48,487 bases of DNA, taken from Candidatus Moranbacteria bacterium RIFCSPHIGHO2_01_FULL_55_24 (GTDB lineage: Bacteria; Patescibacteriota; Minisyncoccia; Moranbacterales; UBA1568). Below, one piece after another: positions 1-10,160 of the stretch. The stretch covers positions 1 through 48,487 of the forward strand of contig MFRW01000004.1 in assembly GCA_001786575.1 (NCBI GenBank), in the 5' to 3' direction. The stretch's first letter is position 1; every line of letters starts with the position of its first letter. Both the position numbers and the translations under genes were made by a program. The notes beneath the pieces were generated by a model. The model ran no database searches and was not told the DNA's origin. It worked only from the letters and a program-made list of their open reading frames with translations.

Positions 1-1121
1 ATAGAGAAGTAAAACCCCAAAATGACGAGTAATCCACCGATTATCCAAAGAAAATGTTCCACGTGGAACATTTTTGGATAAAGATCCTTCATGTTCCACG
101 TGGAACATTGTTTGACTGACCCAAATGTTCCACGTGGAACATTTAATAATTGATTCTGATGTTCCACGTGGAACATTTGATACCATAAATAGCTTATTGA
201 GACTATAAGCGCTATCCACGCACCCTTTGAAAAGCTCAAGAAAAAGACAGCCAGTATCAGAATAAGGCTCAAAATGTTCCACGTGGAACATTTTGTGAGA
301 AATTGTCTTAATGTTCCACGTGGAACATTGTTTGACTGACCCAGATGTTCCACGTGGAACATGGATTTAGTAAGAAAGAAGAGTAATATTACTAAACCGA
401 GAAAGCCTCCTAATATATTCGGATGAAGGAAAAGTCCGTATGGACGCAACATAAATCCTTCATTTAAAGCAATTTTAGCTATTCCAGGATCTGTCCAATA
501 AAAGACTGATTCCCCAAAAATGCTTAATCCAAGCGAAAATCCGGTTATAATTTGGAAAATACCGATGATGCTATTCACCAGAGCTAGGAGAAATAGAGTA
601 TAAAAAGCCCCTTTCATAATGTTCCACGTGGAACATTTTGTGAGAAATTGTCTCAATGTTCCACGTGGAACATTGTTTGACTGACCCAGATGTTCCACGT
701 GGAACATTTTACTATCAATAGTTTTGATCAGGAAAAAGGCAAAAAAGAGTGTACAGGCCTGTATAAGTCTCAAAATGGCATAAAATCCGAGTATCTTATT
801 TTCAGCAAAGAATATGGTAGCTCCAGACAGGGCAATAAAGGCTAGAAGAGCATAAAAGAGTCTCTCATGTTCCACGTGGAACATCTTTTCCCTGTATATT
901 GACAATAACTGTATTTTATTGTTTAATATAAATAGGACAAGAAAACTGGCGAAAAATAGGTCAAAAAGATAGATCGAGACGTCCAGGTATTCGTTATAGC
1001 CAGAAGACAGAGGATTGAAGACAGCAAGAACAATCTGGATGTTCAGAAAGGCTGTAGCGATGAACAGCCAGAAAGAGAGTTTTTCAAACGTTTTAAGAAG
1101 GGGAGAGTCAAGTAATTTCAT
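1..1121 (-). CDS. O-antigen ligase/Wzy-like polytopic membrane protein (3' end outside window) carrying in-frame parS arrays; absent from the ORF track
   Basis: Hand translation from ATG at 1121 (MKLLDSPLLKTFEKLSFWLF...) is open to the window edge (373 codons). About 9 hydrophobic segments and family-type motifs IIGIFQ, SLGLSIFGE..PGIAK, RPYGLFLHPNILGGF and LSFSKGAWIAL, in the same order as the paralog at 18279-19574. Minus-strand TATAAT at 1147-1152. Confidence 0.9.
   Translation of the reverse strand, partial: MKLLDSPLLKTFEKLSFWLFIATAFLNIQIVLAVFNPLSSGYNEYLDVSIYLFDLFFASFLVLFILNNKIQLLSIYREKMFHVEHERLFYALLAFIALSGATIFFAENKILGFYAILRLIQACTLFFAFFLIKTIDSKMFHVEHLGQSNNVPRGTLRQFLTKCSTWNIMKGAFYTLFLLALVNSIIGIFQIITGFSLGLSIFGESVFYWTDPGIAKIALNEGFMLRPYGLFLHPNILGGFLGLVILLFFLTKSMFHVEHLGQSNNVPRGTLRQFLTKCSTWNILSLILILAVFFLSFSKGAWIALIVSISYLWYQMFHVEHQNQLLNVPRGTFGSVKQCSTWNMKDLYPKMFHVEHFLWIIGGLLVILGFYFS
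54..884. repeat. parS: parS (ParB-binding centromere) array: 11 perfect copies of TGTTCCACGTGGAACA
   Basis: 16-bp cores start at 55, 92, 126, 160, 275, 312, 346, 620, 657, 691 and 868. All extend to the 18-bp palindrome ATGTTCCACGTGGAACAT and match the canonical bacterial parS consensus. About 24-26 kb from dnaA/oriC. Confidence 0.93.
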
Positions 1122-1181
1122 GCGATCGGGAAAAGAAATTCCTTTTATTATAGACCATTCCTGGCTGGACCGTAAGGAGCG

Positions 1182-1209
1182 TTGACGAATACCCAAAAGC
1201 CGGTATGAT
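1182..1209 (+). promoter_or_regulatory. sigma70-type promoter for tRNA-Ala
   Basis: TTGACG (1182-1187), 16-nt spacer, TATGAT (1204-1209). Confidence 0.55.
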
Positions 1210-1230
1210 TAGGAGATGCCAGAACCTCAT

Positions 1231-1266
1231 GGGCCTGTAGCTTATCCGCCGGCTGGCGGAGCCTCC
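1231..1266 (+). pseudogene. Degenerate duplicate of the tRNA-Ala 5' end
   Basis: GGGCCTGTAGCTTA (1231-1244) is identical to tRNA-Ala nt 1-14 (1285-1298). It is followed by the hairpin TCCGCC-GGCT-GGCGGA and D-arm-like remnants. Confidence 0.75.
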
Positions 1267-1284
1267 GGGTTCGGCAAGGTAATC

Positions 1285-1357
1285 GGGCCTGTAGCTTAGC
1301 TGGTAGAGCGCCTCCATGGCATGGAGGAGGTCAGGAGTTCGAGTCTCCTCAGGTCCA
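1285..1357 (+). tRNA. tRNA-Ala(GGC)
   Basis: Full cloverleaf; anticodon arm CCTCC-ATGGCAT-GGAGG; TTCGA T-loop; CCA not encoded. Confidence 0.96.
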
Positions 1358-1395
1358 CACAGTCAGATCTTTCAAAAGATAGAGTAATCTTTTCT

Positions 1396-1424
1396 TTGAA
1401 CGAAATTGTTTTCTCTGATACAGT
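1396..1424 (+). promoter_or_regulatory. Promoter of the HTH-LAGLIDADG-like gene
   Basis: TTGAAC-17-TACAGT with TG extension, ending 8 nt before ATG 1433. Confidence 0.55.
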
Positions 1425-1432
1425 AGGAGCGT

Positions 1433-2056
1433 ATGAGAGGGATACCTGTATCAAAAGAAGAAATCCTGAAGATAAAGCGCTTGCGCCGAACCGGCCATAG
1501 TCTGCCAGAAATTCGCGCCCTCTTGAATCGGGGCAGCAGCACGGTCTTCAAATACATCCAGGGAGTGGAAGTCCTCCCTCAATACGCGCTTTTTCTTAAA
1601 GAAAAGCAAGGCGGAAGCAAGGCAAGATCCCAAAAACTCTGGGAAAAATCTCGCGAAAAAGTGCGAGAAATTTCTTTTTCTTCTCATAAGAAGGATCTTC
1701 TTCTGCTTATAGCGGGCCTTTATTGGGCAGAAGGAAACAAGAAGGACCTCAATCTTATCAATAGTGATCCTGATCTGGTACGTATTTTTATCCAAGGACT
1801 TCTCAAACTCGGCGTAGAAAAGGATGATCTGCGTATCAGTCTCCGTCTTTATGAGGATATAGATGAACTGGCGGCAAGGAAATTTTGGGCTGAAAAACTT
1901 GATATCGGAATAAAAAAGATAATCAGCATCGACAGGCTAGGTGGCAAGAAAAACGGCAAACTTCCGTATGGAATGTGCCGTGTCCGAGTGGCCAAAGGAG
2001 GTGATTATTTCAAGATTATCATGAGCAGTATTGAACAAATAAAGACCTTGTGGTAG
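1433..2056 (+). CDS. N-terminal HTH plus LAGLIDADG-like (homing endonuclease-related) protein
   Basis: HTH-like start (LRRTGHSLPEIRALLNRGSSTV), helix IAGLYWAEG resembling the LAGLIDADG motif, then NSDPDLVRIF and YGMCRV; a pattern typical of tRNA-adjacent CPR proteins. Confidence 0.7.
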   Translation: MRGIPVSKEEILKIKRLRRTGHSLPEIRALLNRGSSTVFKYIQGVEVLPQYALFLKEKQGGSKARSQKLWEKSREKVREISFSSHKKDLLLLIAGLYWAEGNKKDLNLINSDPDLVRIFIQGLLKLGVEKDDLRISLRLYEDIDELAARKFWAEKLDIGIKKIISIDRLGGKKNGKLPYGMCRVRVAKGGDYFKIIMSSIEQIKTLW

Positions 2057-2068
2057 CATGCACAGTCA

Positions 2069-2140
2069 GCTCTTGTAGTTCAACGGATAGAACGAGGGAC
2101 TCCTAAGCCTTAAATGCAGGTTCGACTCCTGCCGAGAGCA
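2069..2140 (+). tRNA. tRNA-Arg(CCT)
   Basis: GCTCTTG/CGAGAGC acceptor stem, loop CTCCTAA, T-arm GCAGG-TTCGACT-CCTGC; A31-G39 mismatch. Confidence 0.92.
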
Positions 2141-2155
2141 CTAAGCAACCTCTCT

Positions 2156-2488
2156 ATGTCACTCCGCATCACCAAGGTCAATGAACTCATCCGGGATCTC
2201 GTTTCCGAGACGATCAATACGGATCTCTCTTTGAAGCCGGGAGTTTTCGTCACGCTTACCAAATGCGAGACTTCCAAGGACCTGCGGCATGCACGCATCT
2301 TCGTGAGCATCTTTCCCGAAAGCGAAACGCGCTATGCTACTGAAACTCTCGCCAAAGAACGCGCGCGCATCGAGCGGAACGTGCATCAGAAGCTCTACAT
2401 GAAGCCGCTTCCGAAGATCTCTTTCCATGTCGACACTACCGCCCAGAGCGCAGATGAAGTGGAGAAGCTTCTGAAGAAAATTTTTTAG
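2156..2488 (+). CDS. rbfA: Ribosome-binding factor A
   Basis: RITKVNELIR...SKDLRHARIFVS...PKISFHVD. Start moved to ATG 2156 because the listed 2114 start overlaps tRNA-Arg. Confidence 0.92.
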   Translation: MSLRITKVNELIRDLVSETINTDLSLKPGVFVTLTKCETSKDLRHARIFVSIFPESETRYATETLAKERARIERNVHQKLYMKPLPKISFHVDTTAQSADEVEKLLKKIF

Positions 2489-2515
2489 ACAGTATCGACG
2501 GGGGATTTTCACCGC

Positions 2516-2524
2516 TTATCCACA
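2516..2524 (+). promoter_or_regulatory. Isolated perfect DnaA box
   Basis: TTATCCACA in the rbfA-nrnA intergenic spacer. Confidence 0.45.
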
Positions 2525-2549
2525 GGCTATACCCGAAACAGAACTCTTC

Positions 2550-3509
2550 ATGAAAAACTTTCGCAAAGAATTCCATACGCTCCGCTACGTGATAGAGGGT
2601 TCGAAGCGCATTCTCCTCGTGGCACATAAGCGTCCGGATGCCGACACGGTAGGCGCCAATGCAGCCATGCATGAATACCTGGTTTCGCTCGGCAAAGAAG
2701 TCGACATCGCCTGCTACGATGCATTTCCGGAAAGCCTGCGCGACCTGGGCATGAAAGAATTCGTGCATCCGGAAAAGCTCGCGCTCACGAAGTACGATGC
2801 CGTATTCGCTCTCGACAGTGTCGATCGCGGCTTCCATCTCTTCGCTCCCTCTCTTACGAAAAATCAGGTGACGGTCCTTCTCGACCATCATCCGGACATC
2901 GCGCTTTCCGGGGACATCGTCATCATCGACCCGAGCTATTCTTCCACTTCAGAACTTGTCTATCTCTATTTCTCCCAGGAGGGGATCCAGATTTCGAAAA
3001 AGATGGCGAGCTACCTCTTGGCCGGCATCCTCTTCGACACCGGAGGATTCCAGCATTCGAATGTCTCACCGCGCGTGATGGAAATAGCTTCCGCTCTTAT
3101 GAAGCACGGAGCGCCGCTCGCCAAGATTTCCCAGATCATTTTCACCAACAAGGACATCGCGGCCCTGCGCCTGTGGGGGAGAGCGCTCGAGAAAGCCCGT
3201 CTCCACCAAAAGAACGGGATGCTCGTGACGGCCATCACCCAGGAAGACATCCGTCTCTGCAACGCTTCTCCGGAAGATATCTACCAGGTCACTTCCATCT
3301 TGAGCGCGGTACCGGATGCCAAATTCGCCCTCGTGCTCTCGGAGCGCGATGAGACGACTGTCCGGGCCAGCCTGCGTTCCATGGAACACCACGGCGTGGA
3401 CGTCTCGGCCATCGCCCATACTTTCGGCGGGGGAGGCCACCGGCTCGCAAGCGGCTTCGAGATCCCCGGCAAGATCGTCGAAACCCTCGATGGATTCGCC
3501 GTCGTGTAA
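2550..3509 (+). CDS. nrnA: DHH/DHHA1 oligoribonuclease/pAp phosphatase
   Basis: HxxPDAD, DHH, DTGGF and GGGGH motifs. Confidence 0.88.
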   Translation: MKNFRKEFHTLRYVIEGSKRILLVAHKRPDADTVGANAAMHEYLVSLGKEVDIACYDAFPESLRDLGMKEFVHPEKLALTKYDAVFALDSVDRGFHLFAPSLTKNQVTVLLDHHPDIALSGDIVIIDPSYSSTSELVYLYFSQEGIQISKKMASYLLAGILFDTGGFQHSNVSPRVMEIASALMKHGAPLAKISQIIFTNKDIAALRLWGRALEKARLHQKNGMLVTAITQEDIRLCNASPEDIYQVTSILSAVPDAKFALVLSERDETTVRASLRSMEHHGVDVSAIAHTFGGGGHRLASGFEIPGKIVETLDGFAVV

Positions 3510-3524
3510 ACACCTCTCATACTT

Positions 3525-4133
3525 ATGGATACCCGTGCCCTCCTGCAAGAACTGAACGAACGTCACGACAGGCTCTCTCCATGCAAGCTCAAAGAGAGCG
3601 CGACGCACGCCGTACCAGGAGACGGGAATCCTGATGCGGATATCATGTTCGTAGGTGAAGCGCCCGGGAAAAACGAAGATCTGGAAGGGAAACCTTTCGT
3701 CGGTGCGGCAGGAAAATTCTTGAACGAAATGCTCGCAGGCATCGGCCTGAAGCGCGAAGATATCTACATCACCAATGTCGTGAAATACCGGCCGCCGAAT
3801 AACCGCGATCCGCTGCCGGAAGAAGTGGAGGCTTGCATGCCGTGGCTCCATGACCAGATCATGCTCATCAAGCCGAAGCTCATCGTGACGCTCGGCCGCC
3901 ACGCCATGGAGCACTTCGTGCCGGGAAAAAAGATATCCCAAATCCACGGAACTGCTTTCCGTCGATCCTTCGATGATATGGGCACCCAGGTCTTCTACGC
4001 CCTCTACCATCCGGCGGCCGCTCTTTACAACGGCGGCATGCGGGAAACGCTTATGAAGGATTTCCAGAAAATACCGGCTGTACTCGAAACTCTCGAAAAA
4101 GAGCGCGGCGGCCCTTCCGAGAAAGCTGTTTGA
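3525..4133 (+). CDS. Uracil-DNA glycosylase family 4
   Basis: GEAPG..ED..G.PFVG, RPP.NRDP and YHPAA motifs. Confidence 0.92.
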   Translation: MDTRALLQELNERHDRLSPCKLKESATHAVPGDGNPDADIMFVGEAPGKNEDLEGKPFVGAAGKFLNEMLAGIGLKREDIYITNVVKYRPPNNRDPLPEEVEACMPWLHDQIMLIKPKLIVTLGRHAMEHFVPGKKISQIHGTAFRRSFDDMGTQVFYALYHPAAALYNGGMRETLMKDFQKIPAVLETLEKERGGPSEKAV

Positions 4134-4158
4134 CAGAACTCTCTCTTTTCATTACTGT
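4130..4158 (+). promoter_or_regulatory. sigma70 promoter
   Basis: TTGACA-17-TACTGT upstream of 4184. Confidence 0.65.
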
Positions 4159-4183
4159 ATCCTGATATCCCGCAAAAAGGAGA

Positions 4184-4681
4184 GTGCTGATGTTCACGCA
4201 TGCTGATCCTTCTGATTTTGGGAGAATCAACGAGAAAAGGTTCTTTGAAATAGTACGCCGCTTACAATATCGTGCTCCGCACTGGTTTTTCACGCTCGAA
4301 CGGGCAACGGTCCCCACGGATGTCCGCGGCATCGATGCTTTCGCGCTCATCCGCAAGCGCAGCGATCCGGATACGGTCATCCGCGTGCCCATCCAGATCA
4401 AGAGCTCCAAAAAAGGTATCGAGCAGCACTACAGAAAACATCCCAGTCATTGGGTGGACGGTGTTGTTCTCCTGGTGGTCAACGATATTCGGAACGACCG
4501 GGAAATTTTCACGGAATTCCTCGAGCGACTCTTCGAAATCTGGAAAAAAGACTGGACGTATGAGCCGTTCTTTGCGCGACTCTATGCCGAACCCCTGGAT
4601 AAACGGGGAAGAAAGATCCGTGACGAGCTTATCGCCAGGGAATCCTCACGGAGAAAGAAGCCTTTCTCCCCAGAAAACTGA
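4184..4681 (+). CDS. Hypothetical protein, probable PD-(D/E)xK nuclease fold
   Basis: N-terminal G..NE helix, D.RGID and PIQIKSS (QxK variant). Confidence 0.65.
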   Translation: MLMFTHADPSDFGRINEKRFFEIVRRLQYRAPHWFFTLERATVPTDVRGIDAFALIRKRSDPDTVIRVPIQIKSSKKGIEQHYRKHPSHWVDGVVLLVVNDIRNDREIFTEFLERLFEIWKKDWTYEPFFARLYAEPLDKRGRKIRDELIARESSRRKKPFSPEN

Positions 4682-4718
4682 CAGCCCTTCTGATCATCCG
4701 AACAGAAGGGCTGTTTTT
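4681..4718. terminator. Intrinsic terminator
   Basis: ACAGCCCTTCTG/CAGAAGGGCTGT stem followed by a T run. Confidence 0.8.
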
Positions 4719-4738
4719 CATTCTCTTTCGATTCGCTG

Positions 4739-4821
4739 TGCCGCGGGAGAGACTCGAACTCTCATGGCCTTGCAGCCCGCGGATTTTAAGTCCGCTGCGT
4801 ATACCATTCCGCCACCACGGC
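4739..4821 (-). tRNA. tRNA-Leu(TAA)
   Basis: GCGGA-CTTAAAA-TCCGC anticodon arm, long variable arm. Confidence 0.96.
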
Positions 4822-4830
4822 TTGCTTTTG

Positions 4831-4901
4831 AGGTCGTGCCCGGAATTGAACCGGGGTAAAGGGTTTTGCAGACCCGTGCCTAACCACTCGGCCACACGAC
4901 C
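4831..4901 (-). tRNA. tRNA-Cys(GCA)
   Basis: GGTCGTG acceptor stem, CTGCAAA loop, U discriminator. Confidence 0.96.
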
Positions 4902-4915
4902 AGTTGACCTACCGA

Positions 4916-4944
4916 AGGGTATCAAAATGACCCTCCCCAGTCAA
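4916..4944 (-). promoter_or_regulatory. Promoter for tRNA-Cys/Leu
   Basis: TTGACT-17-TACCCT on the minus strand. Confidence 0.55.
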
Positions 4945-4945
4945 C

Positions 4946-4974
4946 CAAAAACTCCCCAGAAAGGGGAGTTTTTG
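4946..4974. terminator. Intrinsic terminator of the 3D-domain gene
   Basis: AAAAACTCCCC-AGAAA-GGGGAGTTTTT. Confidence 0.8.
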
Positions 4975-4981
4975 CAGATAT

Positions 4982-5536
4982 TTACCGGATAACTTCAGCT
5001 ACGAGATTCTTGCGTCCGAACTGGAACGCCTCGGCCTTCGTCACCATGTAGATATCGAATTTGTTTCCTTTGATGGCTCCTCCGCGGTCTTCACACCGGT
5101 AGTCTCCCATACCCTCGATACGCACAATGGTACCGAAAGGATAGTTAGGAGGACATGCCAGAGTACGGTCCTTAGCGACTTTCAAACCGGAAGCGGTGAT
5201 ACCGTCGCTTTTCCCGCACTCGTCGGCCGCAGCCGTATAGGCTGAAGCGTTGATAGTGAAGGCATTTTGCGGAAGATTGCTCCACAGATGATTCTGCTTC
5301 TCTTTCCAGCGAGCGAGCGTTTTTTCCTCTACGGTAAGCTCCTCTTTCATCTGGGAAATTTCCTTGGCCCGCTCTTTGAAGGTCCATTCTAGAAGAAACG
5401 GGTCTTCAGCGTAATAATAGTCCTCAAGAGTCGGCACCTGGGAAGCCTGGGAAGCAGGATTCTCTGCTTTGGCGATATTGGGAAGGATCAAGATGCTTAC
5501 TGCTACGGCGAAAAGGGTAACCTTTCCAAAAATCAT
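4982..5536 (-). CDS. Secreted 3D (Asp-Asp-Asp) domain protein, MltA-like peptidoglycan-remodelling family
   Basis: Signal peptide; SAYT, GITASG, PFGT and EDRGGAIKGNKFDIY motifs. Confidence 0.88.
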   Translation of the reverse strand: MIFGKVTLFAVAVSILILPNIAKAENPASQASQVPTLEDYYYAEDPFLLEWTFKERAKEISQMKEELTVEEKTLARWKEKQNHLWSNLPQNAFTINASAYTAAADECGKSDGITASGLKVAKDRTLACPPNYPFGTIVRIEGMGDYRCEDRGGAIKGNKFDIYMVTKAEAFQFGRKNLVAEVIR

Positions 5537-5618
5537 ACTGTGTACTTACGTGTAAGCCGCTTTTTCCGTGGAAGAAACGGGCCATCCCGAGAGCCAAGCT
5601 CTTTTAGGTTGACCGACT

Positions 5619-5647
5619 ATCCTAGCACAAAATAAGATCCCTGTCAA
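5619..5647 (-). promoter_or_regulatory. sigma70 promoter of the 3D-domain gene
   Basis: TTGACA-17-TAGGAT with TG extension. Confidence 0.75.
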
Positions 5648-5680
5648 GAGTATTCCGTCATTATTTGGCTTATATAAAGC

Positions 5681-5708
5681 AAAAACAGCCAGAATAATGG
5701 CTGTTTTT
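5681..5708. terminator. Intrinsic terminator, probably the ancestral tRNA-Gly terminator
   Basis: AAAAACAGCCA-GAATAA-TGGCTGTTTTT, just beyond the displaced tRNA-Gly 3' end. Confidence 0.75.
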
Positions 5709-5771
5709 CGCTTATTTGAGCGGGTTGCTATGCATCTTCAGAACTAAAACTGAAGAAAGTCCACGTGCCCC

Positions 5772-5827
5772 TTGACTTCCTGTGAAATTCACTCTACACT
5801 ACAAATATACTATTTTTGATATATTTG
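5772..5827 (+). promoter_or_regulatory. Toxin-antitoxin promoter with candidate operators
   Basis: TTGACT-17-TACACT (5772-5800); palindrome GTGAA-A-TTCAC in the spacer (5782-5792); inverted repeat CAAATATA/TATATTTG (5802-5827). Confidence 0.7.
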
Positions 5828-5829
5828 GT

Positions 5830-6168
5830 ATGGAGCTCAATTACCACCCGAAGGCGGCAGGTTTTATAAAGAACCTGACTGATCCGAAGGCGAGGCGGAA
5901 GATAAGCGATAAACTGGGATATCTGGAAAAATATGGTATTGAGCAAATGAAAAAGGCCACAGACGCCGAGAAGATACAAGGAATTGCCCCAATAAAGATG
6001 GACGAGTTAAAATTTCCCTACCGCAAGATGGAGTATCGTCTTTTTGGGGGAATAGTCGCAGACTTTTATGGAATATTTCATGGGTATATCAAGCGAGGGA
6101 GAAAGCTTGACAGAGGGGAGGTCAATACAGCGTTAGGTCATAGACAGGAGATGATCGGCCCTTTTTAG
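5830..6168 (+). CDS. HigB/RelE (Gp49-like) toxin
   Basis: About 112 aa; ELK...EYRLF...FHGYIK..KL...EV..A pattern; toxin precedes HTH gene. ATG 5830 is preferred because the listed 5782 start lies inside the promoter. Confidence 0.75.
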   Translation: MELNYHPKAAGFIKNLTDPKARRKISDKLGYLEKYGIEQMKKATDAEKIQGIAPIKMDELKFPYRKMEYRLFGGIVADFYGIFHGYIKRGRKLDRGEVNTALGHRQEMIGPF

Positions 6169-6194
6169 TATGTATTAAGATTAATAATATTAAG

Positions 6195-6638
6195 ATGCAA
6201 AGATTAATTATGAAACACGCAGAACTTAAAAAAATCCTTTCAGAAGATAAGGATTATAGGGATTTAATTAATCATTATGATTTAAAGTATGAGATTTCCG
6301 AACTTATAACGCGGGCTCGTATCTCAAGAGGGTTTAGTCAAGAGAAATTAGCTAAATTAATTAAGAGTAAACAACCTAATATTGCTCGACTTGAAAATGC
6401 TTCAGCGTTACCAAGCTTAAGCACGTTAGAGAAAATAGCCAAAGCATTTGATTCCTATTTAATTGCTCCAAAATTTGCCTTTTTAGAAGAAGAGGACAAC
6501 CATGCAAAGGAAACCCTGAAAACGGTTCGTGCTTGGGCAATTGAACCCGATGTCTTGGCCCATACCCATAGGAGATTATTTCCAATTAACGCTAATATAA
6601 GCTTTACACCATCGCCAATTAATAATCCTGCAAGTTAA
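6195..6638 (+). CDS. HigA-like XRE-family HTH antitoxin with C-terminal extension
   Basis: ARISRGFSQEKLAKLI..KQPNIARLEN...PSLSTLEKIAKA; about 55-aa tail after the HTH; alternative start at 6210. Confidence 0.85.
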   Translation: MQRLIMKHAELKKILSEDKDYRDLINHYDLKYEISELITRARISRGFSQEKLAKLIKSKQPNIARLENASALPSLSTLEKIAKAFDSYLIAPKFAFLEEEDNHAKETLKTVRAWAIEPDVLAHTHRRLFPINANISFTPSPINNPAS

Positions 6639-6642
6639 ATAT

Positions 6643-7089
6643 ATGAAAAATATCTGGTCTTTACTTTGCAGAAAAGCTCTTATTGATTCTCAGACTAATA
6701 CCATTAGCTTAATTGATTCCTTTGAAGAAATTGAGATCGGCATTGATCCAAGCGCAAAAGGGAAAAATGTAAATGTGGTTGTTGATTTTGAACTAGTTTC
6801 CTATTGGATAAAAGATAAGAATGACACTAAAAATTATTTAGGTAGCGTAGAAGTTACTGATCCAAATAATAAAATTTTAGGAAGCTTTCCCTTTAGTTTA
6901 GATTTTGCTAATTCCAACAGGTTACGGGCGCGTCTTCAGTTTTCTTCGATGATTGTTACAGTACAAGGTGAATATATTTTTCATGTCAAATATAAATCAG
7001 AAGATGAAGGGAAGTTTACAAAAGCTACAGAAATACCATTGTTAGTGAAGGTCGTAGAAACCATCAATAACTTAAAGTCCAATAAATAA
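6643..7089 (+). CDS. Beta-rich hypothetical protein (DUF6941-like), third gene of the toxin-antitoxin operon
   Basis: WSLLC..ALID..TN.ISLID N-terminus, DP..KIL and GEY.F motifs; 4-nt gap after the antitoxin. Confidence 0.65.
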   Translation: MKNIWSLLCRKALIDSQTNTISLIDSFEEIEIGIDPSAKGKNVNVVVDFELVSYWIKDKNDTKNYLGSVEVTDPNNKILGSFPFSLDFANSNRLRARLQFSSMIVTVQGEYIFHVKYKSEDEGKFTKATEIPLLVKVVETINNLKSNK

Positions 7090-7115
7090 AGCTGCTGACA
7101 TTCAATAAAAGATAC

Positions 7116-7148
7116 CAAAAAGGCCTGGAAAAAATCCAGGCCTTTTTG
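7116..7148. terminator. Bidirectional intrinsic terminator
   Basis: AAAAAGGCCTGGA-AAAAA-TCCAGGCCTTTTT. Confidence 0.85.
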
Positions 7149-7225
7149 TTACTTAGAGCTACTTAGCTCAATCTATTAGAACCGAATTTATACAAGAGAA
7201 CGTGTCAGATTCTCACCAAACACTC

Positions 7226-7588
7226 CTACTTAGTATTTTTATCTACTGGAATTGGATATTCTTCTTTCATAAGTAGTGCTATCTTTTTCTCAATATAGAA
7301 CTTTGAAATTAAAATTGCGGAAATATGAGCTAAAGCAATTAATAATAGCGCCCAGCAAGGATTCATCGAAAAATGGAACAAATGCAACAATGTCGCTACA
7401 GCAAGAAAAATTAGTCCAATCCAACCATCATAGAAAGCGCTTAGCTGTGCCCTAAGCACTAAAGCATTTCCACCATAGTAGGTTCTTGACTCGTCTTTTA
7501 TTACTCTCTTGGATCTTAAAACAATAGACTTTATGATCCAAAATCCAGCAACAAAATCGAAAACATAGGCTATTGTACTCGATTCCAT
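7226..7588 (-). CDS. Small hypothetical membrane protein (~3 TM)
   Basis: 120-aa ORF with three hydrophobic stretches; starts 13 nt after tRNA-Gly, inside the islet. Confidence 0.6.
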   Translation of the reverse strand: MESSTIAYVFDFVAGFWIIKSIVLRSKRVIKDESRTYYGGNALVLRAQLSAFYDGWIGLIFLAVATLLHLFHFSMNPCWALLLIALAHISAILISKFYIEKKIALLMKEEYPIPVDKNTK

Positions 7589-7601
7589 ATCTCACTTTGT
7601 G

Positions 7602-7673
7602 AGCGGGTAAGGGGAGTCGAACCCCTATCTAGTCCTTGGCAAGGACTCATAATAGCCGCTATACGATACCCGC
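7602..7673 (-). tRNA. tRNA-Gly(GCC)
   Basis: GCGGGTA/TACCCGC acceptor stem, AGTCC-TTGCCAA-GGACT anticodon arm. Confidence 0.96.
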
Positions 7674-7860
7674 TTATATACTATTGATCTGTTAAATATC
7701 TCTTCGCAAGACTCATGATAGCGGCATAATAGCCTCTGACTTATCACGATACCCGCTTATAGTACCTATTGATTTGTTAAAATATCTGTTTTTCGAGGTT
7801 CATGCTGGCCGCAGATAGCCTCTGACTTATCACGATACCCGCTTATAGTACCTATTGAAT
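7663..7860 (-). repeat. Degenerate tandem repeats (~83-86 nt) of the tRNA-Gly 5' end plus leader
   Basis: ACGATACCCGCTTATA...CTATTGA at 7663, 7746 and 7832; copies 2 and 3 share ATAGCCTCTGACTTATC. Confidence 0.85.
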
Positions 7861-7910
7861 CTGCTGCTAAATAACTGCTTATGCAGTATTTTCAAAAGAC
7901 TCTACTATAG

Positions 7911-7983
7911 TGGGACTGGCTGGATTCGAACCAGCGACCAAGCGGTTATGAGCCGCCTGCTCTTACCGCTGAGCTACAGTCCC
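7911..7983 (-). tRNA. tRNA-Ile2(CAT), lysidine type (rather than Met)
   Basis: GGCGG-CTCATAA-CCGCT anticodon arm; body resembles bacterial Ile2 tRNAs; no initiator features. Confidence 0.85.
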
Positions 7984-7999
7984 GGATAAGCCAAAGTCC

Positions 8000-8075
8000 G
8001 GTGGATAACTACCGTATAACTCACTTATCCACCCATATCCACACCGATATTATCAAAAAACTCTGTCCTTCTCAA
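8000..8075 (-). promoter_or_regulatory. tRNA promoter followed by three near-consensus DnaA boxes
   Basis: TTGAGA-17-TAATAT (8047-8075, minus strand); 8/9 boxes at 8000-8008, 8025-8033 and 8035-8043. Confidence 0.55.
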
Positions 8076-8087
8076 TCTTTTCTCGTG

Positions 8088-8159
8088 TGCCGAGGGGCAG
8101 GATCGAACTGCCGACACAAGGATCTTCAGTCCTCTGCTCTACCACTGAGCTACCTCGGC
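8088..8159 (-). tRNA. tRNA-Phe(GAA)
   Basis: GAGGA-CTGAAGA-TCCTT anticodon arm. Confidence 0.96.
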
Positions 8160-8184
8160 TTGCCATCGCATCTTAACAGTACTT

Positions 8185-8261
8185 TGGTGCACGCTCAAGG
8201 ACTCGAACCTTGGACCCCCTCGGTGTAAACGAGGTGCTCTAACCAACTGAGCTAAGCGTGC
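8185..8261 (-). tRNA. tRNA-Val(TAC), CCA encoded
   Basis: CCTCG-TTTACAC-CGAGG anticodon arm; ends in ACCA. Confidence 0.96.
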
Positions 8262-8278
8262 AGACGAGTTTTCCGGTG

Positions 8279-8362
8279 TGCCCAAGAGAGGACTCGAACC
8301 TCCAATCCCTTGCGGGAACTAGCACCTCAAGCTAGCGCGTATACCAATTCCGCCACCTGGGC
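8279..8362 (-). tRNA. tRNA-Leu(GAG)
   Basis: CTAGC-TTGAGGT-GCTAG anticodon arm, long variable arm. Confidence 0.96.
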
Positions 8363-8378
8363 ATGTGAAAGAGTGCGA

Positions 8379-8894
8379 TTAAGCCTCTTTCTTTTCTTCT
8401 GTCTCCTGCGAAGCCTCCGCTTCTACTCCCGCTACTTCTGCTTCTTCAGCCTGCTCTGGAGCCATTTCTTCGATAACCTCTTCCACTTCCTCGGAAGCGG
8501 TCTCGACAACGGCTACGGCCGGCTTCTGGCTGTCTTTCAAGGCCACCGTCTTCAGCTTCTTCGAAAGGACCTTGACCGACTTGTCGCGGACGAAGTAGAG
8601 CTTGGCACGGCGAGCCTTCGTGCGCTTCACGAACTCGATCTTCTCGATCTGCGGAGAAGAAAGCGGGAGCACCAGCTCCACGCCGATTCCGAAAGAAACC
8701 TTGCGGATAGTGAGGATCTGGGAAGAGCTCTGGCCGCCACGGATAGCGATAATTGTTCCCTGGAAGGCTTGAGTACGCTCTTTTCCGCCTTCTTTGATCT
8801 TGCGGTAGACCTTCACGACATCGCCTGCATGAAGCTCGGGAAGACCGAAATCTTTCCGCTGCGTCTTATTGAATGAGATGAGCTGTTGGTGCAT
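8379..8894 (-). CDS. rplS: 50S ribosomal protein L19 with acidic C-terminal tail
   Basis: GDVVKV..KIKEG.KER.QAFQG, GIGVE and RRAKLYFVR motifs; likely start ATG 8894. Confidence 0.95.
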   Translation of the reverse strand: MHQQLISFNKTQRKDFGLPELHAGDVVKVYRKIKEGGKERTQAFQGTIIAIRGGQSSSQILTIRKVSFGIGVELVLPLSSPQIEKIEFVKRTKARRAKLYFVRDKSVKVLSKKLKTVALKDSQKPAVAVVETASEEVEEVIEEMAPEQAEEAEVAGVEAEASQETEEKKEA

Positions 8895-8984
8895 AAGCTT
8901 CTGATTGGGAGCCATCCGAAAAAATCTTTCCGGCAAGCGAATAATGGATAAAGACTGTAGTAAATATAAAAAAGCCTAATGTCT

Positions 8985-10160
8985 CTATGAAGACAGGCTT
9001 TTCAAGGCCCCATTATCATAGCGAAATCCTCCGGTTTCGTCAATATCCTCCAAGAGCCCGCGAAAATCTTCCGGGAGCGGAGCGGAGAATACGTATTTTT
9101 GGCCGAAAAGAGGGAAGGAAAGCGATTCCGCATGGAGCATATGCCGGGGAATATCCGGGAATGCCGCCCGGGAGGCTTTGGAAGCATACAGCTTGTCTCC
9201 GAGAACAGGATTTCCCAAAGCGGCAGCATGAACCCTGATCTGGTGCATCCGGCCCGTTTTCGGGGAGAATTCCACCAAACTTGCTCCGGAACCTGGGAAA
9301 TGCGCCAATACCCGGTATTCGGTGACCGCCTCGCGCCTCTGGGGGTCTTCTCCATCCCTTGCCCGGGCGATGCGGCGCTTCAGAGTTCCCTTCTTTCGGG
9401 TCAGTGGGAGATCGATAATCCCAGCTTCTTGAGGCATTTTCCCATAAACCAGGGCCAGATAGGTCTTTTCCGCCTGTCTCTCCTGGAAGGCCTGTTTGAG
9501 CGCCTGAAACGCCTTTTCTGTCCGAGCAACCACAAGGACTCCGGAAGTCTCACGATCCAAACGATGGACTATTCCCGGACGCTCTTCGTCTTCTCCGACA
9601 TCCTTGATTTCCGGATAACGGAAAAGAATGGCTTCAATAAGGGAAAAATCAGAAGACTTTCTCCCGGCCTTGGGATGCACGGAAATACCGCTCTCTTTAT
9701 TGAGCACCAGAAAGTCCTTATTCTCCTCCAATACCCCAAGGGTATACCTTCTGGCACCCAGAGTTCTTTTTTCGACTGCCTCGCTGTTCCAAATCGCTTC
9801 GGACACTGTGATCTTATCCTTATAGAAAAGCTTGGTTTCGGGATTCGCGCGCTTCCCGTTTAGGAGGATATCCCCGGAGAGTATGAGCTTCTTGAGTTCG
9901 GAACGGGAAAAACGGGCACCTTCCGGCATATCCGGGTGTCCCTGAAGGAGGCTCGCAAGCGCCAGATCGAGACGCTTATCGACATATTTTCTGGGCACGA
10001 AAAAGGTCATGCCGAGGGGTCTTGGTTCCATAGCTGGTTTCGTGGTATTCCTGTTCTTTCCCGGGGAGCACCCCAGGAAATCGAGGGGCGGATGGCGTCT
10101 TGTTCTTGTGACACGGATTTGCTTTTTTGGCAAGGGAATGGCCGTTTTCTCTTTTCGCAT
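8985..10160 (-). CDS. RluA/RluD-family pseudouridine synthase
   Basis: S4-like domain, VHRLDRETSG and KTGRMHQIRVH; true start may be 10031. Confidence 0.92.
   Translation of the reverse strand: MRKEKTAIPLPKKQIRVTRTRRHPPLDFLGCSPGKNRNTTKPAMEPRPLGMTFFVPRKYVDKRLDLALASLLQGHPDMPEGARFSRSELKKLILSGDILLNGKRANPETKLFYKDKITVSEAIWNSEAVEKRTLGARRYTLGVLEENKDFLVLNKESGISVHPKAGRKSSDFSLIEAILFRYPEIKDVGEDEERPGIVHRLDRETSGVLVVARTEKAFQALKQAFQERQAEKTYLALVYGKMPQEAGIIDLPLTRKKGTLKRRIARARDGEDPQRREAVTEYRVLAHFPGSGASLVEFSPKTGRMHQIRVHAAALGNPVLGDKLYASKASRAAFPDIPRHMLHAESLSFPLFGQKYVFSAPLPEDFRGLLEDIDETGGFRYDNGALKSLSS

Follow-up and report, generated by a model that had tools for sequence, protein, structure and literature searches.

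A free-standing HTH-LAGLIDADG-like gene docked to tRNA-Arg(CCT) in a Moranbacteria genome: a candidate homing cassette of the tRNA anticodon loop

Why does a lone open reading frame (ORF) lie between two tRNA genes, with nearly the same 14 nucleotides (nt) at its two edges? This question is raised by the stretch of DNA analysed here (called the window throughout), 48,487 nt of contig MFRW01000004.1 from the 789-kb, 99%-complete genome of Candidatus Moranbacteria bacterium RIFCSPHIGHO2_01_FULL_55_24, in which a gene for a protein of 207 amino acids (aa) stands between tRNA-Ala(GGC) and tRNA-Arg(CCT). The initial annotation had seen in it a minimal selfish element that inserts at the 5' end of tRNA genes with a 14-nt target-site duplication. 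The present analysis leads to an element of another build. The ORF probably belongs to a very large family of Patescibacteria genes, free-standing and homing-endonuclease-like, in which a helix-turn-helix (HTH) is joined to a LAGLIDADG-like domain, and the likelier reading of the locus is that a cassette built around this gene entered a tRNA gene in its anticodon loop and supplies a working tRNA. The four parts of the unit are, in order, a tRNA-Arg 5'-half relic that reaches to the anticodon, then a promoter and the ORF, and last an intact tRNA-Arg; endonuclease activity and homing are inferred for the ORF product.

The association with tRNA genes extends through the whole family. A word-indexed search returned 491 relatives, nearly all of about 207 aa, and an exhaustive profile search returned 4383 cluster representatives at E up to 1e-3, 2208 of them at E up to 1e-10. 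The close homologs of Arg type were taken as the best 80 of 165 relatives found with one peptide pattern in GTDB genomes. In 78 of these 80, a tRNA-Arg(CCT) on the same strand starts between -51 and +62 nt from the ORF stop, and the distance from a conserved GMCR motif to the tRNA start is 76–152 nt, mostly 84–92 nt. At 52 of the 78 loci the ORF does not stop before the tRNA but on or within it, and in 17 of those 52 the T8-A9-G10 of the tRNA itself is the ORF stop codon. Of the two loci among the 80 that do not fit, L081 has a broken ORF and L129 has no called tRNA. The upstream neighbour is variable (tRNA-Ala, tRNA-Gly(CCC), a tRNA-Pro on the opposite strand, or no tRNA), and therefore the constant partner is tRNA-Arg, not the neighbourhood. 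Distant paralogs (about 30% identity) are found next to other tRNA genes: 18 of 22 in a genus/order sample adjoin Trp, Gln, Gly, Met or Thr tRNAs, and of 40 family matches, used in the order of the list from 400 evenly drawn phylum genomes, at least 36 adjoin Gly, Ile, Arg, Thr, Lys, Met, Gln or Ser tRNAs. The remaining four comprise one ORF that leaves its contig, two without a tRNA in the fetched stretch and one that was not resolved. The tie of homologs to tRNA 5' ends, which the initial annotation had expected, thus goes far beyond chance expectation; each sub-family keeps to the 5' end of a single kind of tRNA gene, and the ORF of the window belongs to the tRNA-Arg(CCT) sub-family. One paralog ORF (L171, on G159 C2) has a tRNA-Ser(GCT) upstream and a tRNA called Ser(ACT) 3 nt past its stop, where a full tRNA copy may be preserved on both sides. 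We could not find any description of Patescibacteria tRNA-fused endonuclease genes in the full-text literature (subscription journals and supplements were outside the scope), and a survey of insertion sequences and LAGLIDADG enzymes in the rRNA genes of the candidate phyla radiation mentions tRNA 0 times (PMC11270868). The tRNA-docked HTH-LAGLIDADG family is seemingly undescribed.

In the window, the locus is composed of the following features.

1285 to 1358, plus strand: tRNA-Ala(GGC), the upstream neighbour (ARAGORN; Rfam tRNA, 64.6 bits; the same Ala-Arg pair occurs at 20 same-genus loci).
1358 to 1371, plus strand: repeat copy 1, CACAGTCAGATCTT, of which 8 nt equal the tRNA-Arg leader and the next 6 nt are the first of the relic.
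1366 to 1396, plus strand: decayed tRNA-Arg 5'-half relic, about nt 1–36, with a 5-nt deletion and with CCT decayed to CTT.
1396 to 1429, plus strand: putative ORF promoter, read by eye (TTGAAC at 1396–1401, a 17-nt spacer, TACAGT at 1419–1424, AGGAG at 1425–1429).
1433 to 2056, plus strand: the 207-aa ORF, with the HTH in residues 1–46 and a single-motif LAGLIDADG-like domain in residues 83–207 (1679–2053); motif LYWAEG (E100).
2031 to 2059, plus strand: putative tRNA-Arg promoter in the last ORF codons, read by eye (TTGAAC at 2031–2036, 17 nt, TGgTAGCAT at 2051–2059).
2061 to 2074, plus strand: repeat copy 2, CACAGTCAGCTCTT, the 8-nt leader followed by tRNA-Arg nt 1–6.
2069 to 2141, plus strand: intact tRNA-Arg(CCT) (ARAGORN; Rfam, 62.2 bits), which starts 12 nt past the ORF stop.

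The repeat itself is as the initial annotation had described it in coordinates, spacing and identity. CACAGTCAGATCTT begins on the final base that ARAGORN assigns to tRNA-Ala(GGC), the last 6 nt of CACAGTCAGCTCTT are the first 6 nt of tRNA-Arg(CCT), and the two copies, whose starts are 703 nt apart, are identical at 13 of 14 positions, a level equalled in 1 of 1000 dinucleotide-preserving shuffles (1345–1432 against 2045–2141). A gapped alignment lengthens the repeat to 1358–1383 against 2061–2091 (tRNA -8 to +23) with one 5-nt gap that starts directly after the 14-nt repeat; its score of 24 was equalled in 4 of 2000 shuffles. The 207-aa ORF is the only one between the two copies and stands alone, not in an intron or intein. 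The earlier description of an insert with a single gene and no integrase, transposase or intron was likewise confirmed, as no Rfam intron was matched within window positions 1–9000 and no integrase, transposase or other recombinase is encoded among the ORF neighbours (rbfA, a DHH/DHHA1 phosphoesterase and a UDG-family gene). For the promoter of its own that had been ascribed to the ORF, TTGAAC-17-TACAGT can be recognised by eye; both by-eye promoters match the consensus at 8 of 12 positions, below the scan threshold of 9 of 12. The stop codon TAG (2054–2056) falls within the -10 box of the putative tRNA-Arg promoter, and a similar arrangement, TTGATA-17-TGnTAnnnT, precedes tRNA-Arg in relatives without the ORF.

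The relic was recognised by comparison with the relatives, many of which have a discernible tRNA-Arg 5' half at the start of the aligned region before the ORF. The tRNA-Arg model was searched (nhmmer) against the 250 nt upstream of the 78 ORFs, with 77 downstream regions as controls. Twelve of the 78 upstream regions match nt 1–36 of the model at E below 1e-4, with matches starting at nt 1–3, and in 10 of these 12 clear relics the match ends at model nt 36–38, 31–37 nt before the ORF; 12 weaker matches lie in the same register. No relic-type match was found in the 77 downstream controls, where the model matched just a genuine tRNA (L077) and, in L065, a 3' half of nt 37–73. The relic ends after the third anticodon base and is followed directly by TGAxxx, so that ...CCT|TGAAC yields a -35-like TTGAAC; by eye, TTGAxx after the CCT of the relic is common to many relatives. 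In a register set by eye, 17 of the 24 bases at 1378–1401 of the window are the same as in the relics of relatives; nhmmer alone missed this copy. From these comparisons, the 14-nt repeat of the window reads as the tip of a decayed tRNA-Arg 5'-half copy, i.e., the first 6 nt of the relic plus the 8-nt leader. Because the better-preserved copy in relatives runs to about nt 36 and then into the promoter, the ancestral entry point would be the anticodon loop.

The relic is no fresh copy of the adjacent tRNA. Its nt 27–36 match the other relics at 6.2 of 10 positions and its own resident tRNA at 4.3 of 10, and its anticodon arm represents a real allele class of relatives without the ORF (e.g., L050). 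The sister ortholog (G023) has a relic that shares the lineage-specific first six nt, GCTCTT, with its resident tRNA and whose anticodon arm is of relic type; no 8-nt leader is shared between the two. The leader identity is therefore peculiar to the lineage of the window, and it is most likely a later gene-conversion patch and not an insertion footprint. The earlier view of the 14-nt repeat as an insertion duplication at the tRNA 5' end consequently had to be abandoned: what was taken for it is the start of a decayed 5'-half copy, with a leader that G023 lacks. A mosaic relic with a host-like left end is not a general rule, since it gave no signal in the 12 loci and was seen only in the window and in G023. 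Upstream of the paralogs at other tRNAs, half-tRNA relics scored no better than the downstream controls.

Relics of the 3' side were recognised downstream in L065 (nt 37–73, E 3.5e-6) and in L109 (nt 43–73, E 0.0075; both within the 300 nt after the tRNA). These orphan 3' parts lie 51–87 nt past tRNA-Arg in L065 and 10–40 nt past it in L109, and the latter is probably a relic as well. The 3' relic of L065, with a GC hairpin in its anticodon loop, corresponds to the tRNA of L066, a related locus.

The protein was examined by structure prediction and profile searches. The full-length AlphaFold model, built from 41 homologs, has a predicted local distance difference test score (pLDDT) of 85, and its N-terminal three-helix HTH resembles those of Tc3 transposase (Z 6.2), IstA and Hin. 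The C-terminal domain modelled alone reaches a pLDDT of 91 and a predicted template modelling score of 0.83. In a fold search that works independently of Foldseek (VIA-wide), the best match of this domain model is I-DmoI (Z 8.0, root-mean-square deviation 2.7 over 82 aa, 27% identity), followed by WhiA (Z 7.3, 7.0 and 7.0), the TliVMA intein endonuclease (6.9), E-DreI (6.8) and I-Vdi141I (6.3); LAGLIDADG folds make up 12 of the 13 best entries. I-DmoI was also the sole nuclease matched in the family profile searches (E 0.011–0.026 in A1 and from E 0.012 in A2), and the profile alignment places the family motif LYWgeG on LYVAEG of the second I-DmoI motif. E100 and G101 are invariant in 41 of 41 and 35 of 35 aligned sequences, and an acidic residue followed by Gly is kept in 22 of the 22 paralogs examined. 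E100 is presumably the counterpart of a metal-binding residue of I-DmoI, and WhiA is presumed to have lost this Glu.

A homodimer was predicted with a score of 0.64, the best control scoring 0.20. Between runs, 93% or more of the contacts recur and the pLDDT of the partner is 79 or higher; residues 87–100, the motif helix, form a symmetric interface. In the calibration of the tool, 20 of 30 proteins solved as pairs and 1 of 23 solved as single chains attained this mark, and such a pass may in part reflect likeness to solved dimers. The LAGLIDADG-like fold call is thus backed by two independent lines, the family profiles and the predicted homodimer. Because of the fold match, the profile match, the predicted dimer and the invariant E100, we regard the C-terminal domain as LAGLIDADG-like and probably catalytic, although it lies outside the curated sequence families: the nuclease domain has no family in Pfam, NCBIfam or PHROGs, and a single-sequence PDB search with the ORF protein gave no match. 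The HTH and LAGLIDADG-like nature that the initial annotation had read from the sequence is accordingly upheld by models and profiles.

The distribution of the gene is patchy. In the genome of the window the ORF is single-copy, and a panel of family proteins searched by tblastn over this genome found only the ORF itself and no paralog relics. Of 400 phylum genomes, 5 have the Arg-type gene (E below 1e-39) and 79 have some member of the family, the highest number in one genome being seven copies. Within the genus of the window, the synteny of Ala(GGC) and Arg(CCT) is conserved, and G023 harbors the only ortholog at the same site (66% identical); its tRNA-Arg allele is identical to that of the window and to that of the ORF-less G004. 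Nineteen same-genus Ala-Arg spacers of 17–350 nt contain no trace of the ORF (best tblastn E 1.6), and therefore the empty sites expected in relatives do exist. Promoter-like ends of such spacers, which can be read in frame like the C-terminus of the ORF, were considered as ORF relics and rejected, as apart from the -35 and -10 boxes they share just 5 of 15 bases with the window, no more than chance gives. On one contig, which comes from another organism, tRNA-Ala and tRNA-Arg are linked with 33 other letters between them. A tblastn search of the phage and plasmid collections returned no match to the ORF.

Elsewhere in the window, a 236-nt spacer lies between tRNA-Met and tRNA-Gly(GCC) (7674–7909), a place where the relatives L018 and L021 carry an endonuclease paralog; no paralog relic was found in this spacer by tblastn. 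Identical or near-identical cassettes (L070/L073, L098/L101, L114 and many records of 'uncultured Gammaproteobacteria') were encountered in bins labelled Nanoarchaeota, Bathyarchaeia, Gammaproteobacteria and Bdellovibrionales, and these are probably mis-binned Patescibacteria contigs.

If the cassette works as we suppose, a homodimer of the ORF product would recognise a sensitive tRNA-Arg(CCT) allele at its anticodon arm, whose DNA is a natural palindrome, and cut it in the anticodon loop; the end of the relic at 36/37 is the middle of this palindrome, where a LAGLIDADG enzyme would cut. Repair would then copy in the cassette, i.e., promoter and ORF together with all or part of a replacement tRNA. 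A working tRNA would stay available to the host, the displaced 5' half would remain upstream, with its last bases running into the -35 box of the ORF, and the old 3' half would only rarely remain downstream. The relic on the left and the tRNA would act as portable homology arms. The element of the window, which is tied to a tRNA and probably selfish, would be old; its relic is decayed. From the initial annotation, the proposal that the element targets the 5' end of a tRNA gene and regenerates the tRNA survives in part: a working tRNA follows the ORF and a duplicated 5' piece lies upstream, but the entry point appears to be the anticodon loop. As to the alleles, nt 31–33 of the resident tRNA are ACT, unlike the relic-type CGT, in 45 of the 78 ORF-bearing loci, a weak hint that resident alleles may be resistant anticodon-stem variants. 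The foreign origin of the working tRNA has evidence on both sides, as the relic differs from the resident at nt 27–36, yet the ORF-less G004 shares the allele of the window; the G004 allele fits either a resistant allele left after loss of the element or a native allele.

A number of observations weigh against this reading. The 8-nt leader identity is not accounted for by the cassette model itself and is its least explained detail. A recognisable relic is kept in only 12–24 of the 78 loci and in none of the five Arg-type loci of the phylum sample, and 3' relics are rare. The intact tRNA keeps its anticodon loop, so self-cleavage must somehow be avoided, and the relic-type C31-G32-T33 is present in 17 of 78 ORF-bearing residents against 9 of 22 ORF-less relatives, two samples that are not independent. 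The Logan contigs show only the occupied form, none of them skipping the insert in this strain. As for the protein, the I-DmoI score of Z 8.0 sits at the caution line of the fold-search tool itself; Foldseek against the PDB gave no LAGLIDADG match for either model, only weak IspF-like rows; and the secondary structure assigned by DSSP has the order a-b-a-b-a-b-b-a, where a-b-b-a-b-b-a is canonical, strand 2 of the first hairpin being missing and the hairpin shortened. No Pfam LAGLIDADG model matches the ORF protein (weak HTH matches only, E up to 1); 30 distant family members likewise have no more than weak HTH matches, and 0 of the 30 match a LAGLIDADG model at E up to 0.01. Finally, the protein tree clusters by host group (Moranbacteria, Microgenomates-type, Azambacteria and Zambryskibacteria), and therefore either the gene spread mostly among relatives or it is old and was often lost; in the tree topology, old vertical descent with many losses fits too. 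The question of vertical conservation without empty alleles, which had been named at the outset as a counter-indication, thus has a divided answer, since 19 genomes have empty sites and the tree nonetheless follows host groups broadly.

This host-tracking tree is what a domesticated protein would also produce, and the least improbable of the alternatives is a LAGLIDADG-derived, WhiA-like DNA-binding protein that regulates the downstream tRNA gene and has descended vertically since the early Patescibacteria, with loss in most lineages. WhiA is the second-best structural match (Z 7.3), the ORFs are intact in 78 of 80 loci, and the end of the ORF overlaps the putative tRNA promoter; a relic at the ORF's own promoter would suit an operator. 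We nevertheless think such a regulator unlikely. The Glu of the motif is invariant, whereas WhiA presumably lacks it; the Arg type occurs in only 5 of 400 genomes, yet the family reaches seven copies in one of them; same-genus genomes manage without the ORF; and partial tRNA copies litter the locus. A role at the RNA level seems quite improbable. Here the protein would be a maturase-like factor acting on its own mRNA-tRNA co-transcript, and the ORF-tRNA fusion would serve co-transcription and processing by RNase P. With frames ending inside the tRNA in 52 of 78 loci, the ORF and the tRNA must often share a transcript, and LAGLIDADG maturases do exist, but an HTH of the Tc3/Hin DNA-binding type, a conserved Glu of catalytic type and a gene that is dispensable in most genomes do not suit this role.

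The model of the initial annotation, a minimal element inserting at the tRNA 5' end with a 14-nt target-site duplication (-8 to +6), can draw on the repeat flanking the insert exactly at 13 of 14 positions and on the 5-nt gap of the relic beginning right after it. It has become very improbable in view of the sister ortholog in G023, which occupies the same site without the leader duplication, and of the upstream copy in relatives, which spans nt 1–36 without a leader. Homing endonucleases are known to make no target-site duplications, and duplications from -8 to +6 were found in 0 of 77 loci, where the matches are at tRNA positions 0 to +25. That the ORF is an ordinary intergenic gene beside a chance repeat is hardly credible: by our own arithmetic about 185 pairs of 13/14 matches are expected somewhere in the 48-kb window, but a match at these two junctions is rare in the shuffles (1 of 1000 and 4 of 2000), and a tRNA fusion throughout the family cannot be chance.

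Among known systems, the likely counterpart of the window element is a free-standing homing element similar to the mORFs of fungal mitochondria. These mORFs (Allomyces atp6; Glomus atp6, atp9, cox2 and nad3) carry a replacement C-terminus of foreign origin, and the native C-terminus persists as a relic (PMC3630166). Like the mORFs, which are free-standing LAGLIDADG or GIY-YIG genes, the ORF sits in an essential gene without an intron, with a replacement gene part and a relic alongside. In mORFs, however, what is replaced is the 3' end of a protein-coding gene, with a downstream relic, whereas the element of the window concerns a tRNA gene with a 5'-half relic upstream, has its ORF fused to the 5' end of a working tRNA, and resides in a Patescibacteria chromosome. 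In phage T4, the free-standing GIY-YIG enzyme SegB is encoded in a tRNA cluster; it recognises a motif conserved in tRNA genes, and its gene is co-inherited with the neighbouring tRNA genes (PMC2330249). Both are free-standing endonuclease-type genes among tRNA genes, but SegB belongs to another nuclease family and to a phage, has a T-psi-C target, and shows neither fusion to a tRNA 5' end nor a half-tRNA relic.

The enzymes of the I-DmoI/I-CreI type are the best fold and profile match, and the motif LYWAEG of the ORF aligns with LYVAEG of I-DmoI. I-CreI dimerises through its motif helix, as predicted for the ORF product. The ORF differs from this type in the lack of a Pfam LAGLIDADG match, the shortened first hairpin, the extra Tc3/Hin-like HTH and the absence of an intron or intein. 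Intronless homing has been described in a review of bacterial group I introns (PMC3984707). Group I introns in tRNA genes sit after anticodon nt 36, the same point at which the element of the window would have entered. Unlike them, the window has no intron RNA (Rfam), and a complete tRNA follows instead of a 3' exon. One such intron is that in tRNA-Arg(CCU) of Agrobacterium, which our literature search did not return. Integrase islands and prophages at tRNA 3' ends likewise enter a tRNA gene and regenerate it from a copy borne by the element; they differ in having a tyrosine integrase and a 3'-end duplication, whereas the unit of the window has no integrase, a 5'-side relic and a size of only about 0.75 kb.

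Partial tRNA copies were also seen apart from the ORF. Several ORF-less Ala-Arg spacers (L037, L038, L035, L040, L044 and L051) contain one or two 5' fragments of tRNA-Arg that reach to about nt 21, and in most of them the fragment is followed by a GC-rich palindrome such as CCTGCCTGCCGGCGGGCAGGG. The tRNA-Arg locus therefore carries partial duplications even without the endonuclease gene. In L030 (G054), a pseudo-tRNA-Arg of about nt 1–56 lies upstream of the working gene, with a 4-nt duplication, GTCC GTCC, in its anticodon loop near the supposed cut. Such copies in genomes without the ORF would speak for recurrent breakage and repair at the tRNA-Arg locus. In the genome of the window, a 16-nt GC-rich hairpin, TCCGCC-NNNN-GGCGGA, adjoins many tRNA genes (window 1230–1284; G000 C3 about 46297; C10 about 5674, 5970 and 24775; C4 56004 and 66620; C9 39202), and where this is plainest, a decayed partial duplicate of the 5' part of that tRNA lies just ahead of the intact gene and is broken up by the hairpin. 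At tRNA-Ala(GGC) of the window, the upstream copy reproduces nt 1–14 at 14 of 14 positions and the hairpin follows at 1244–1259; at tRNA-Ser(TGA), it takes the place of the D-loop of the pseudo-copy. By their arrangement, these hairpin-interrupted copies appear as a second, ORF-less kind of 5'-side tRNA duplication.

A different repeat occurs at the end of the contig. The perfect 18-nt palindrome ATGTTCCACGTGGAACAT has 12 copies in the genome, 11 of them within 830 nt (window 54–884) of the minus-strand ORF 3–1196 and the twelfth at position 314 of G000 contig C5. The copies are read in frame as MFHVEH, NVPRGT or CSTWNI and are partly arranged in units of about 90 nt with three copies each (272–362 and 617–707). 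ORF 3–1196 has no Pfam match; ATGTTCCACGTGGAACAT looks like a set of in-frame palindromic repeat insertions in a membrane-protein gene.

If the cassette reading holds, tRNA genes, which are among the most conserved and essential targets, have their own intron-less homing elements in a major bacterial phylum, and besides introns and inteins there would be a third way to live inside an essential gene, which is to bring a spare copy. Annotation oddities such as half-tRNAs, tandem tRNA fragments and ORFs that read into tRNAs would also be accounted for, an exchange of tRNA alleles driven by nucleases would be expected, and many compact long-site nucleases would exist in nature, with likely targets readable from their neighbours. 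More tentatively, and as a possibility that we would not put first, the family may form a phylum-wide guild of tRNA-gene parasites, that is, HTH-LAGLIDADG homodimers each cutting the anticodon loop of one tRNA species, whose cassettes of about 0.75 kb would home through the half-tRNA relic and the replacement tRNA as their only arms, regardless of the flanks, and so overwrite tRNA alleles. Were this so, selfish nucleases would drive a horizontal turnover of tRNA genes in the Patescibacteria, with 'sensitive' and 'resistant' anticodon-stem alleles co-evolving with them.

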